Shown here: in pieces, positions 7,840 to 11,313 of the stretch
Layout of the letters: each line of letters starts with the position of its first letter
How positions within the stretch are numbered: position 1 is the stretch's first letter
Assembly: GCA_963704165.1 (NCBI GenBank)
Contig: CAVPHD010000009.1
Location: forward strand, 128,001-192,000
Source: an uncultured delta proteobacterium
GTDB taxonomy: Bacteria; Myxococcota_A; UBA9160; SZUA-336
DNA: 64,000 nt
Reading direction: 5' to 3'
The notes under the pieces: model-generated
What the model saw: the letters and a program-made list of their open reading frames with translations, nothing else
The model's database searches: none
What the model was told of the DNA's origin: nothing
Made by a program: the position numbers and the translations under genes

Positions 7840-9093
7840 TTGGACGCCCTCGGCCCCGCGGGCTGGGGCTCGTGTCCCGGAAGCGACGGACCGGGCACGG
7901 GCCTCCTCGCTCTCGAACCCGAGGTGGTCTTCGCCGGCGGATTCGCGGCGCTGCGCGAGGCCCGGCGCTGGCTCGACGACGCGCGATGCGAGGCCCCCCT
8001 GGGAGCGGTTCTCGTCGGCTGCATCGACTACGAGCTCGGCCTCGAGATCTGCGGCGGACGCGTGAGCTCGAAACCCGGAAGCGCATCGGCACCGGTTCGC
8101 CTCGCCGGATTCCGCGCGGTCTACCGGTATGACTGGCGAACCGGCGACGCGGAGGTCCGCGGCAGCTCGCGCCGAGCCGTCGATCGGCTCGCAGATGCGA
8201 TCGCGGTTGCGAAGCCGGGAGCGCGTTCCGCATGCGTGCCGCTCCGCCCTCCGGTTTCCCGCACCACGGACCTCGAATTCGCCGCGGCCATCGAGCGCGT
8301 GAAGGCCTACATCCGCGCGGGCGACGTCTACCAGGTCAACCTGTCGCGTCGATTGGAGACCGCCGCACCGAAGCCCGCCGACCAGCGTCGACTCCTCGGC
8401 CTTCTCGCGGATCGCGCTGGCGCGCCGTTCACCGCCTACCTCGAAACACCCGAGCAGACGGTGGTCTCGGCTTCACCCGAGTGCTTTCTGCGAGTGTCGG
8501 GCGATCGCGTACAGACCTGCCCGATCAAGGGCACGCGCCCCCGCGGTCGCACGCCTGCGCTCGACTCGATCCTCCTCAAGGAGCTCGAGAGCTCTGCGAA
8601 GGATCGCGCGGAGCACGTGATGATCGTGGACCTCGAGCGAAACGACCTCGGCCGCGTCTGCGAAACCGGAAGCGTGCGGGTCACCCGGCTCTGCGAACCG
8701 CGATCGTTCAGCGACGTCCACCACCTCGTTTCGTGCGTGAGCGGGAGGCTGCGCAACCCACGCGACTGGCCGAGCCTGCTCGAGGCCACCTTTCCCGGCG
8801 GATCGATTACCGGCGCACCGAAGCTTCGCGCGATGCAGATCATCGGCGAGCTCGAGCCGGTTCCGCGCGGTGTCTACACCGGCGCGCTCGGCGTCTTCGA
8901 TTCCGTCGGCGACGTGGACCTCTCGATTGCGATCCGAACGGCGGTGTCGAGCGGGAGCGAGATGCACCTCCATCTCGGCGGCGGAATCGTCGCGGATTCG
9001 GACGTCGCGGAAGAGCTGCGCGAGACTCGCGACAAGGGACGAGCCTTCTCTCGCAGCTGGGAGTTCGAGGAGCGGACGAACTCGGCCGAGTAA
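7840..9093 (+). CDS. pabB: Aminodeoxychorismate synthase component I (chorismate-binding family); start uncertain
   Basis: AGDVYQVNLS, SASPE, PIKGT (PabB-type Lys rather than TrpE PIAGT), EHVMIVDLERNDLGR, FPGGSITGAPK. Confidence 0.85.
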   Translation: MDALGPAGWGSCPGSDGPGTGLLALEPEVVFAGGFAALREARRWLDDARCEAPLGAVLVGCIDYELGLEICGGRVSSKPGSASAPVRLAGFRAVYRYDWRTGDAEVRGSSRRAVDRLADAIAVAKPGARSACVPLRPPVSRTTDLEFAAAIERVKAYIRAGDVYQVNLSRRLETAAPKPADQRRLLGLLADRAGAPFTAYLETPEQTVVSASPECFLRVSGDRVQTCPIKGTRPRGRTPALDSILLKELESSAKDRAEHVMIVDLERNDLGRVCETGSVRVTRLCEPRSFSDVHHLVSCVSGRLRNPRDWPSLLEATFPGGSITGAPKLRAMQIIGELEPVPRGVYTGALGVFDSVGDVDLSIAIRTAVSSGSEMHLHLGGGIVADSDVAEELRETRDKGRAFSRSWEFEERTNSAE

Positions 9094-9205
9094 CCCTCTC
9101 GAGAGTCGCCTGGAGCTCGATCGAACGCGGTCTTCCCACGACGATCTGCCTCAAGCACGCGAGAACGCGCTCCGAAGAGCGAAACGAGGCTTCGGAGGGG
9201 TCGTG

Positions 9206-9763
9206 ATGAAACAGGCGGAGACGATACGGGACGAGACGGGAATCGCCCCGATCGCGCCGGAATCGACCGATTCGACGCCTGGCTGGCGCACGATTCCGCT
9301 CGCGGGTGCTCGTGTCGGTACCGCTCGCCCACCCGAGCCACAGCGCCGAACCGATTCCCGTATTCATGCCGACTTCCAGCTCGAACTGACTTCGATCGAC
9401 GCGTCGCGCGACGCGATGAGCGGCGATCTGTTCTTCGCGACGAGCGCGGACGAGCACACGCGAAATCTCTCACGACGAGGGATGTGCGTCCGTTGCGAAC
9501 GTCCCCCGACGATCGGCACACGTGTGCTCCTGCAATTGCGCCTTCCCGGAGAAGCCTCGATCGACGTGATCGGACAGACGCGCTGGACGCGCGTCGAGTT
9601 CGAGCCGGGCGAGCATGGTTCACGCGCGTACGCGCTCGTCGGAATCGAGCTGCTCGGCGGCGCGCCGCGCGCACTCGATCGCTACGACCGAGCGCTGGGC
9701 CGTTTGCTCGCGCTCGACGACAGCCCAAACACCCCGGTTGCCTCCGTCGGGAACCGCCGATAG
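9206..9763 (+). CDS. PilZ-domain (c-di-GMP-binding) protein
   Basis: RRTDSR (RxxxR) and TRNLSRRG (D/NxSxxG) motifs; GGAGGGG RBS before ATG. Confidence 0.75.
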   Translation: MKQAETIRDETGIAPIAPESTDSTPGWRTIPLAGARVGTARPPEPQRRTDSRIHADFQLELTSIDASRDAMSGDLFFATSADEHTRNLSRRGMCVRCERPPTIGTRVLLQLRLPGEASIDVIGQTRWTRVEFEPGEHGSRAYALVGIELLGGAPRALDRYDRALGRLLALDDSPNTPVASVGNRR

Positions 9764-9819
9764 CATGCCACGAGATGCGCAGCTCGAAGTCACCGGGAAT
9801 GTTTCGTTGGATCCGCGGA

Positions 9820-10080
9820 ATGCGGACCTTCGAGGTCGATCCTGAACGGCTCCGCGCGCGGCGAGTGAGCGCGATCATTCGCTCGATCCAGCGCGATCTC
9901 GACGAAGGTGGTCGCGCGTACGTCCGCCAGATCATGAACGGGCCCGAGTTGTTTCGCCTCGAACTCGAGCGCCCCGACTGGCGGTATCAGAGGACGACGA
10001 TTCTCGACCGCGATACGCTGCGATCGCTGCTCGAAGCCACGCCCGTCGAGACCGTTCGCTCCTCGATGCGCTTCCGCTAG
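9820..10080 (+). CDS. Hypothetical protein (86 aa)
   Basis: MRTFEVDPERL...; genome-typical codon usage, fills the gap between PilZ gene and tRNA-Leu. Confidence 0.5.
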   Translation: MRTFEVDPERLRARRVSAIIRSIQRDLDEGGRAYVRQIMNGPELFRLELERPDWRYQRTTILDRDTLRSLLEATPVETVRSSMRFR

Positions 10081-10110: not shown

Positions 10111-10458
10111 TGCCCGGAGCGGGGCTCGAACCCGCATGAGGCTCGCGCCTCAAAGGATTTTACGCGTGTCCGGAGATTTCTCTCCGGGGCGGACTATCTC
10201 TTCACCCCACGTCGCGCGACGCTCGCCGCGAACCTGGGGTGCTGGGCGCTCTTCGGCGGGGATTATCGTTGGGGCTCACCCCGCTAGTCTCTGCACCTTC
10301 CGCGGAACCTCTGCCCTCCGCGGCTTGGCTCAGGATTACCCTGCGTGCGCGGTCGCTCGTTTAGGCTTCCCTGAGTTCACCCAGTTTCTTACCCGCGTGT
10401 TGCCACGCGGGAGACCCATCCTCGAGTCCCTCGTGTCTACCTGTTCCACCATCCGGGC
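10111..10458 (-). tRNA. tRNA-Leu(TAA), interrupted by a group I intron; exons 10425-10458 and 10111-10162
   Basis: Spliced sequence GCCCGGA TG GTGGAACAGGTAGACAC G AGGGA CT|TAA AA TCCTT TGAGGCGCGAGCCTCA T GCGGG TTCGAGC CCCGC TCCGGGC A: class II cloverleaf, A73; follows tRNA-Cys as in the common Cys-Leu(UAA) order. Confidence 0.93.
10163..10424 (-). ncRNA. Group I self-splicing intron (262 nt, no ORF)
   Basis: P1 exon GGGACU pairs with IGS GGUCUC with U-G at the 5' splice site; P2 with GCAA loop; P AACUCAGGGAA (10367-10377), Q AAUCCUGAGC (10328-10337), R GUGCAGAGACUA (10285-10296), S AAGAGAUAGUCC (10191-10202); P3 CUGGGUG/CGCCCAG; P7 GACUA/UAGUC; P8 CACCCCA/UGGGGUG; P9 CCGGAGA-GAAA-UCUCCGG; terminal G. 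Confidence 0.95.
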
Positions 10459-10511: not shown

Positions 10512-10582
10512 AGGCGCCGCCCGGATTCGAACCGGGGATAAAGGCTTTGCAGGCCTCTGCCTTACCACTTGGCCACGGCGCC
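10512..10582 (-). tRNA. tRNA-Cys(GCA)
   Basis: GGCGCCG acceptor, GAGGC-CT GCA AA-GCCTT, TTCGAAT, U73 discriminator. Confidence 0.96.
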
Positions 10583-10624: not shown

Positions 10625-11080
10625 TCAAGACAGCGCGTCGAGTCCGGGAGCACGCGCGCGGGAGAAACCGATGCGCACGAGCACCCCGTCGGCATCGAGA
10701 TCGACCGCTTCGAAGAGTTCCGTCTGAGCGCGGCGCGTGAACCGGGCCTCGAATCCGCTCGCCAGCGTGCAGCGAAGCGTTCCGTCGAGATCGACGCGGA
10801 GCGTCTCCGCGAGGAGCGGTTCGCGCGATCGGTCCGAGAGCGCGAGATCACCGGTCGCCTCGTCGTAAGAGTCGACGAAGAAGGCCGTGTCCTCGACGTC
10901 GAGCCAGCCGCGAAATCGGCCGATCTGCACGACGAAGGTCTGCTCGGTCGATGCCCAGCGCACGCCCGCGAGGAACGCCTCCCGAAGCCGCGCATGCGTT
11001 ACGCGTACTCCTTGGTGCCAGAAGCTCCCGTCGCGGCGAAGGACGAGCCCGAACGGCGCGAGCGGATGTGGGCCGCTCAG
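10625..11080 (-). CDS. DUF1285-like protein (start uncertain, possibly CTG overlapping the upstream stop)
   Basis: LRRDGSFWHQG...HARL...F...WLDVEDTAFFV...ARFTR pattern recalled as DUF1285 family. Confidence 0.65.
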   Translation of the reverse strand: MSGPHPLAPFGLVLRRDGSFWHQGVRVTHARLREAFLAGVRWASTEQTFVVQIGRFRGWLDVEDTAFFVDSYDEATGDLALSDRSREPLLAETLRVDLDGTLRCTLASGFEARFTRRAQTELFEAVDLDADGVLVRIGFSRARAPGLDALS

Positions 11081-11313
11081 AGCGACTCCCGCGTCACGCT
11101 CCCGTCGGCCGAGGCGCCAAGGACGCCGCGACAGTCGTAGCGATGCCAGTACACGATCCGACTCGCGCCGTGCTCGAGCCGGTAGATCCACTTCTCGTTC
11201 CAGCGCACGCCGTTCTCTTCGTACGTGCGCGGGTCGTTCACACTGCCGACGACCTCGTCCGGAATCCCGAACCGCTCGCGGACGGAGCCATGTGTCAGCT
11301 CGCTAGCGGTCAC
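11077..11313 (-). CDS. Small hypothetical protein (78 aa) overlapping the nuoD stop
   Basis: GTG start overlaps nuoD end; FGIPD...EKWIY pattern loosely resembles BamE/SmpA-like small folds. Confidence 0.55.
   Translation of the reverse strand: MTASELTHGSVRERFGIPDEVVGSVNDPRTYEENGVRWNEKWIYRLEHGASRIVYWHRYDCRGVLGASADGSVTRESL

Follow-up and report, generated by a model that had tools for sequence, protein, structure and literature searches.

Four classical types of intron-split bacterial tRNA (Leu.3Ug, fMet.2Ug, Arg.5Ug and Ile2.5Ug) are all marked as subgroup IC3 by Williams (2020, 10.1101/2020.01.27.920355), who raised the number of such classes from 4 to 21. In our mapping of reference introns, the cyanobacterial tRNA-Leu(UAA) intron lies at 34/35, the fMet intron at 33/34, the Arg(CCU) intron at 36/37 and the alphaproteobacterial Leu intron at 34/35. 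The positions that a preliminary description of the present locus had given for cyanobacterial Leu(UAA) and fMet introns hold, and they match Leu.3Ug and fMet.2Ug of Williams (2020). Its portrayal of 33/34 as the fMet site stood in part: fMet introns do map there, but the site is not special to fMet, as it is also used by Leu(CAA) introns and by phage Leu(UAA) introns. Given that we found the Leu(CAA) intron at 33/34 in one of 61 alphaproteobacterial genomes, the list of Williams (2020) probably includes a leucine class for this position, and the Leu(UAA) 33/34 site may itself already be among the 17 new classes. The class list stands in the table and figure images of that paper, and the term ‘Leu.2’ occurs 0 times in its main text. 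A 2025 preprint by Nakagawa is cited in PMC12641178 for a new intron site in Patescibacteria. Our literature search turned up no publication that names a Leu(UAA) 33/34 intron; key papers lie outside this search, so absence from print is not implied, and taken by itself the site is probably no novelty. The Nakagawa preprint is said to concern site 35/36 and subgroup IA. What the present locus would add is a probably IA-like build, a likely double invasion of one site and joints seen in field RNA. The group I splicing mechanism is unchanged, and the intron would work like any tRNA group I intron.

The intron-split tRNA-Leu(UAA) gene

In a 64,000-nucleotide stretch of DNA (the window), a tRNA-Leu(UAA) gene on the minus strand is split by a 262-nt group I intron. 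The 5' exon, from G1 to U33, occupies 10425..10458 (34 nt) and ends in AGGGACU; its last base is U33 because the D-loop has one extra base. The intron spans 10163..10424, with its first base at 10424 and its terminal G at 10163, and the 3' exon, from U34 to the discriminator A73, lies at 10111..10162. The latter begins UAAAAUCCUU with the UAA anticodon, has a long variable arm and encodes the CCA incompletely. Joined, the exons give a normal tRNA-Leu(UAA). An ORF-less intron between U33 and U34 was already proposed in the preliminary description, and the exon end, the terminal G of the intron and a comparison of eight splice registers agree on it; registers other than 33/34 were rejected, as only 33/34 has U before the intron together with G at its end. 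The same site was found in 25 of 25 tRNA-intron loci of a search in the family, and joints in RNA of relatives, described below, fall at 10424 and 10163. The Rfam group I model RF00028 matches 10170-10434 with 62.4 bits (cut-off 50, E 2e-15). As predicted from the sequence, default tRNA callers miss the gene: ARAGORN without its intron option and the Rfam tRNA model both return nothing, and ARAGORN with -i makes the correct call of an intron-bearing tRNA-Leu(UAA).

One neighbouring register deserves separate mention. If the splice site lay one base on, so that a C took position 34 as in the Leu.3Cg type of Williams (2020), the product would be a tRNA-Leu(CAA). This register also yields a foldable leucine tRNA, and base +1 is indeed C in 21 of 21 aligned rows, where it pairs with G in P1. 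The intron would then end in U rather than G, however, the RNA joints cut before the C, the carrier L076 has G at +1, and an intact Leu(CAA) gene is already present in the genome, which has no other UAA gene. The chance of this reading is negligible, and we retain U33/U34 as the splice junction.

The genome to which the window belongs (3.87 Mb, 84% complete, 68% G+C) has one group I match. It carries intact leucine tRNA genes with the anticodons CAA, UAG, CAG and GAG, and the intron-split gene is the only Leu(UAA) found; no intact Leu(UAA) gene was seen in this 84%-complete genome, from which a second intact copy could be missing. For annotation this means that the whole family seems to lack a UUA reader unless introns are allowed. 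An intact tRNA-Cys(GCA) gene at 10512..10582 (minus strand) stands upstream on this strand, some 54 bases away, and the two tRNA genes are likely co-transcribed; a promoter and terminator scan gave 0 sites. The neighbouring genes in the window, at 8870-9763 (+), 9790-10080 (+) and 10625-11191 (-), are a PilZ-domain gene and two ORFs without a Pfam or NCBIfam family. No connection of these neighbours to the intron was seen.

Core structure, P7.1 arm and predicted P11

All core helices named in the preliminary description, and several more, can be written for the window’s intron: P1, P2, P3, P4, P5, P6, P6a, P7, P8, P9.0 and P9. The intron thus has the group I features of a P3-P7 pseudoknot core with P4, P6, P8 and a G-binding pair, a U-G pair at the 5' splice site and a terminal G. 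On the minus strand, P1 (10411..10430) joins the exon end to the guide sequence, with U33 paired to the G at 10416, a U-G pair that is invariant in 21 of 21 rows of our alignment. It is followed by the P2 hairpin with a GNRA loop (10393..10410), in which every one of the 7 pairs varies on both sides. The stretch 10329..10384 contains the 5' strand of P3 (10384-10378, paired with 10248-10242), P4 (10375-10370 with 10334-10329) and P5, and P6 with P6a occupies 10296..10328. The 5' strand of P7 with the G-binding pair (10285..10291) finds its partner at 10196-10191 and is likewise invariant (21/21). P8, which has a variable extension, was placed at 10203..10241 by structure and alignment; P9.0 and P9 with a GAAA loop (10164..10190) stand immediately before the terminal G.

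In an alignment of 21 related introns, 97.6% of the cells form pairs, compared with 92.0% in shuffled controls (0 of 500 reached the observed value) and 35-50% for slid partners. Altogether 28 of 69 pairs are altered on both sides, a count made on non-independent kin and with a structure that had been derived from the window’s own sequence. P1 and P7 are nearly invariant and therefore contribute no covariation. The fold of the precursor has a z-score of -4.6. Intron lengths among the carriers range from 225 to 331 nt, the longest being that of L018. A similar hairpin of 30-40 bases is inserted in different arms of introns of the family (L012, L013, L018 and L020), namely in P6a in L012 and L020 and in P8 in L013, and may be a small mobile repeat.

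Overlooked in the preliminary description, a 36-base insert lies between P7 and P3 (10249..10284, minus strand) and folds as a P7.1 stem (10284-10256). In Leu 33/34 introns of the window’s type, the spacer from P7 to P3 measures about 32-53 nt, in contrast to 2 nt in 12 of 12 parsed rows of classical tRNA introns and in nearly all classical tRNA introns overall. The exception is one Arg 36/37 intron (L087) with a 65-nt insert at the same place. The loop bases 10273-10271 of P7.1 are complementary to 10316-10314 in the P6a loop, and together they would form P11. This predicted interaction comprises three pairs, which are always kept, with one compensatory change among the 21 Leu introns. Across 24 distinct loops, phage relatives included, the mean longest pairing was 2.42 against 1.86 ± 0.14 in shuffled loops (2 of 5000), a test in which the loops were crudely parsed and kin are not independent. 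In some phage introns the two loop sequences are interchanged. We infer from this covariation that the P7.1 loop may pair with the P6a loop and brace the core as in subgroup IA introns.

P7.1 is a marker of subgroup IA. It is listed among class features in PMC3984707, and P11 is described for the Candida albicans mtLSU intron (PMC12088405) as the anchor of P7ext against an extended P6 stem. The tie between P11 and subgroup IA is given by the title of Jaeger, Westhof and Michel (1991), as it appears in citing reference lists. With subgroup IA introns that have P11, the window’s intron shares an extension after P7 whose loop is able to pair with an extension of P6; it differs from them in that its P11 is only three pairs long and predicted, its host is a bacterial tRNA, and P9.1 is absent. 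We therefore call the intron likely IA-like, as a structural reading from P7.1 and the likely P11 rather than a formal filing in the subgroup. For RNA biology, natural introns of 225-331 nt with a predicted P11, and with head-to-tail joints seen in field RNA, would be a handy substrate for testing whether bacterial tRNA introns form full-length circles in cells.

RNA joints and splicing

We compared eight of 21 metatranscriptome runs with the window at relaxed likeness (joints at 85 and 80). The window itself is in no RNA run, the best word share being 0.13, and the joints come from relatives. In run X1, two contigs, one with a joint and one with a loose end, lead from base 10424 into a relative’s version of 10163 onward; in both, the terminal G is joined directly to the first intron base (+1) with no extra G. 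A second type of joint, in runs X1 and X3, connects 10424 to the tRNA 3' end across seven intervening bases, which run X2 shows to be the strain’s genomic trailer ending in G. Both types cut exactly between U33 and +1, and the joints of the terminal G to +1 in RNA of relatives map both splice sites. These joints were seen in contigs of one study, which has no DNA run of the same samples, and the tool used warns that such joints often stem from other organisms. The head-to-tail motif had 0 metagenome records, compared with 20 records for the unspliced 3' junction. Runs of five other studies contained no such joint, and some of them have unspliced exon-intron contigs. An exon-exon junction from a matching organism was not seen in the eight runs compared; their sole contiguous Leu(UAA) RNA contig has a different 5' exon.

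Full-length circles are described in PMC6274462 as a side path of group I introns in nuclear rDNA, and the same text mentions a circle from Anabaena’s tRNA-Leu intron, formed in vitro, that is one base longer. The joints seen here resemble the nuclear circles of PMC6274462 in that the terminal G meets the first base without an added guanosine; in contrast, those circles are described for nuclear introns, and the window’s case rests on contigs of one study. A side path that yields full-length intron circles is likely. It is quite possible, though not what we favour, that the intron splices and the joints are library artefacts without cellular circles, produced by reverse transcriptase jumping between the free ends of the linear intron. 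The joints were found as contigs rather than reads and in a single study, and a jump across one shared G would be indistinguishable in sequence from a circle. Such jumps would need free RNA ends at exactly 10424 and 10163 anyway, so the splice sites stand under either reading, and full-length circles have already been described for group I introns (PMC6274462).

By analogy with other group I introns, the 262-nt intron is likely self-excising. Following group I chemistry, free guanosine bound in P7 would attack after U33, which is held by the U-G pair of P1; in a second step U33 would attack after the terminal G, and the exons would be joined at U33-U34. Splicing would be required to read UUA codons. 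As a whole, the explanation in which we place high confidence is that of a group I intron at U33/U34 that is present family-wide, is spliced and is carried as a passenger.

Distribution, kinship and possible role

The same Leu 33/34 intron occurs in 11 of 11 genomes of the genus and in 23 of 31 genomes of the family. An Rfam group I match is present in 24 of these 31, one of which has a 23S intron only. Of the family genomes without the intron, two have Leu(UAA) in intact form, and in six neither version was seen. At a completeness of 90% or more, an intact Leu(UAA) loop was found in 1 of 18 genomes in the family and in 109 of 112 in the other families of the class; a stricter intact-gene pattern, which gave 2 of 225 class genomes, was too narrow, and another mostly matched CAA. 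With a model of these introns, strong matches among 150 genomes of the phylum were confined to the family. A pattern scan of 185,579 species, incomplete in that it missed G370, returned 40 stretches, namely 29 real and 11 chance matches. Most of the real ones (21 of 29) are of the family type, in records mostly labelled Myxococcota, Myxococcales or Deltaproteobacteria, and the named records similar to the window’s are labelled Myxococcota or Deltaproteobacteria, as expected from the non-cyanobacterial host proposed earlier. Five come from one distant small-genome lineage, whose NuoD is 44-46% identical, and the remainder consist of one record with an Armatimonadota label, one with a Gemmatimonadota label and one (L040) of another type. 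The intron has a patchy occurrence in this distant lineage, where 3 of 30 retrieved loci have it.

In a host tree built from NuoD, the intact genes of G024 and G026 need three changes, and a single clade of carriers is not rejected (p 0.118); both gain and loss are compatible with this one-gene tree. The Leu(UAA) exons of the family are unlike those of its sister families, with the 3' side of the anticodon stem of the UCCUU instead of the UCGCC type, and they resemble the exons of the distant carrier lineage; the entire tRNA gene may have been replaced along with the intron. In the Gemmatimonadota-labelled bin, L083 (1477-1802) is a near copy of the family’s intron-tRNA; it lies on a contig of 6 kb next to an integrase fragment, and the NuoD of this bin is just 42% identical to the window’s; this could be a case of misbinning, or of transfer or an integrative element. 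The 58%-complete bin G030 has two different intron-bearing Leu(UAA) loci, L007 and L029. Group I introns in 23S rRNA genes were found in relatives of the class (L005, L015, L016, L028 and L030), some of them long enough for an ORF.

The relation to other introns was examined in a core tree of 100 columns from which P7.1 was excluded. Rows that could not be parsed or were misparsed were left out (18 loci, of which L238 was later added, and L116, L163, L311, L319 and L329); five P3 segments were re-anchored by hand, and the long-branched L316 was kept in one tree and dropped in a later one. The phage rows were taken from the 119 stretches of a pattern scan, with a bias for similar sequences. Over the 100 columns, identity of the window’s core is highest with other Leu 33/34 introns (91%), followed by two Asn(GUU) 35/36 introns (83.5%), phage introns (78-80%; 80.4% for phage tRNA introns) and the classical groups (62-76%). 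The tree splits the P7.1-type set from the classical set at 100/100, and with the pattern-selected phage rows excluded, Leu 33/34 and Asn 35/36 introns still stand on one side with a support of 100/98. A model of the window-type introns, which includes P7.1, gave best outside scores of 105, 100, 96, 95 and 92 bits for P7.1-bearing introns of phage genes and of phage or bacterial tRNAs, in a set with pattern-picked phage rows, compared with 52 bits for the best cyanobacterial Leu intron and 35 bits for fMet. BLAST found no match in plasmids and, in phages, one weak psbA intron in two records.

The closest classical counterparts are likewise compact, ORF-less introns of the anticodon loop with U before and G at the end, and they have P2, P4-P6 and a GAAA-capped P9 in common with the window’s intron, which shares its site number with fMet.2Ug and its host tRNA with Leu.3Ug. 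The combination of Leu(UAA) and 33/34 is not among the four types, however, and P3 and the place in the core tree are different. From Leu.3Ug the intron differs by its site, 33/34 instead of 34/35, and by the 36-nt P7.1 insert in place of a direct P7-P3 connection. With fMet.2Ug it shares the site, but the host is Leu and not fMet, and one clade of the two had an AU p of 0.017 with more rows, although 0.062 and 0.145 in other row sets. For a grouping with Leu 34/35 introns the first tests gave p 0.027, and with more rows 0.014.

A descent from classical IC3 tRNA introns, either fMet 33/34 or Leu 34/35, would call for a shift by one base or a change of host tRNA, with P7.1 added later. Close core motifs (70-76% identity to classical groups over 100 columns) and the insert of the Arg 36/37 intron L087 are consistent with such a history, and with phage rows removed the AU tests do not reject it (p 0.145 for fMet, 0.113 for cyanobacterial Leu). 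Identity is nevertheless higher to the Asn 35/36 and phage tRNA introns, the groupings are rejected when more rows are used, and the P3 sequence and P7.1 motif are common to the window’s type and phage introns. We consider this descent unlikely. Both the core tree and the P7.1 arm lend support to the independent acquisition suggested in the preliminary description, with AU values between p 0.014 and 0.145 on 100 columns; the core groups with Asn 35/36 and phage introns, apart from Leu 34/35 and fMet 33/34. These comparisons support a place of the intron outside the classical Leu(UAA) and fMet intron families, for which the AU support is not strong.

The same junction appears to have been reached by another lineage as well. 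A scan of viral sequences gave 25 stretches, of which 10 resemble the ends of Leu(UAA) 33/34 introns; the 5' exon is clear in six of these, 7 are confirmed by Rfam, and none has P7.1. These P7.1-less phage introns (L308, L309, L312, L320, L324 and L325) and L040 share with the window the tRNA, the site and a short guide motif, but unlike the window they lack P7.1, have a longer P9 region and show about 58% core identity. A single clade uniting P7.1-less phage Leu 33/34 introns with the window’s type is rejected, at p 0.005 and, once pattern-picked rows are removed, at p 0.0003. As judged from these sequences, U33/U34 of tRNA-Leu(UAA) has likely been invaded twice, by two unrelated intron lineages, which would place two structurally different group I lineages at one tRNA site and is of interest for intron evolution.

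We propose that the intron was gained once near the base of the family, its source being a pool of P7.1-bearing introns that phages have as well, and would since have been inherited vertically as a near-neutral passenger without its own nuclease; a small number of distant carriers suggests that it has now and then spread horizontally. No endonuclease was found in the 262-nt intron or beside it, where tRNA-Cys stands directly upstream. In three distant carriers, a free-standing LAGLIDADG gene lies between tRNA-Cys and tRNA-Leu; L078 (732-1472, +) of the small-genome lineage, with the similar L075 and L085, encodes a double-motif protein (PF14528, 49 bits). With that query, no such gene was found in 32 genomes, the window’s and the 31 of the family. 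A collaborative homing pair was rejected, as related LAGLIDADG genes adjoin intact Leu(UAA) genes (three further genomes) as well as other Leu tRNA genes and those for Asp and Cys; given that intact tRNAs have this gene as a neighbour too, the most it could do is take the intron with it.

Gating of translation by UUA codons has a known counterpart in Streptomyces bldA. If the intron were kept as such a gate, the balance of splicing and circle formation would set the level of the sole UUA reader and hence the translation of a few dozen UUA genes. UUA makes up 58 of the 96,564 leucine codons of 2240 crude ORFs, 57 of which contain it, and 112 codons in a looser set (0.06-0.11%); this scarcity, the near-fixation in the family without a nuclease and the RNA joints of a non-splicing type would fit a gate. 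Rare UUA is, however, expected at 68% G+C, two genomes of the family and nearly all sister families live without the intron, and ORF-less tRNA introns have long been retained in cyanobacteria too (24 of 41 genomes with a group I match). A gating role is highly improbable. The broader proposal, in which an IA-type, phage-related lineage invaded the site independently of IC3-like introns, became fixed in the family and acts as a splice/circle switch on the sole UUA reader, is very unlikely. Its weaker form, an undescribed IA-type class at U33/U34 that makes full-length circles in cells and has no regulatory role, we regard as a tentative possibility. Our preferred reading remains that of a spliced passenger.

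Close kin of the intron in phage genes and at other anticodon positions would make the ORF-less spread to new sites testable on short ribozymes. The P7.1-bearing introns of phage genes and of phage or bacterial tRNAs, such as the annotated psbA intron of Synechococcus phage S-CBWM1, L073 and L074, have the same P3, P7.1 frame and loop-loop complementarity; they differ in insertion sites and guide sequences, and some have a GAAA loop instead of P11. L073 (1475-1790) and L074 (1476-1792) are of this latter kind, their P7.1 ending in a GAAA loop; they are best read as Asn(GUU) 35/36, with Thr(UGU) at 33/34 as an ARAGORN alternative of equal score. Phage tRNA genes carry P7.1-type introns at several anticodon positions (L105, L107, L136, L149 and L191), and in L149 a phage Leu(UAA) is split at 34/35 by such an intron. 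The bin G225 has three intron-split tRNAs, namely L040, which is the P7.1-less Leu(UAA) 33/34 intron and is missed by Rfam, and L077 and L080, a CAU tRNA split at 36/37 with the window’s P7.1 motif and a likely Lys(UUU). Group I introns with a long insert after P7 apparently also lie in the T-loop of tmRNA (L081 and L088), and L304 has two group I introns (726-936 and 1505-1726) in a phage capsid-like gene inside a relative of the phylum.
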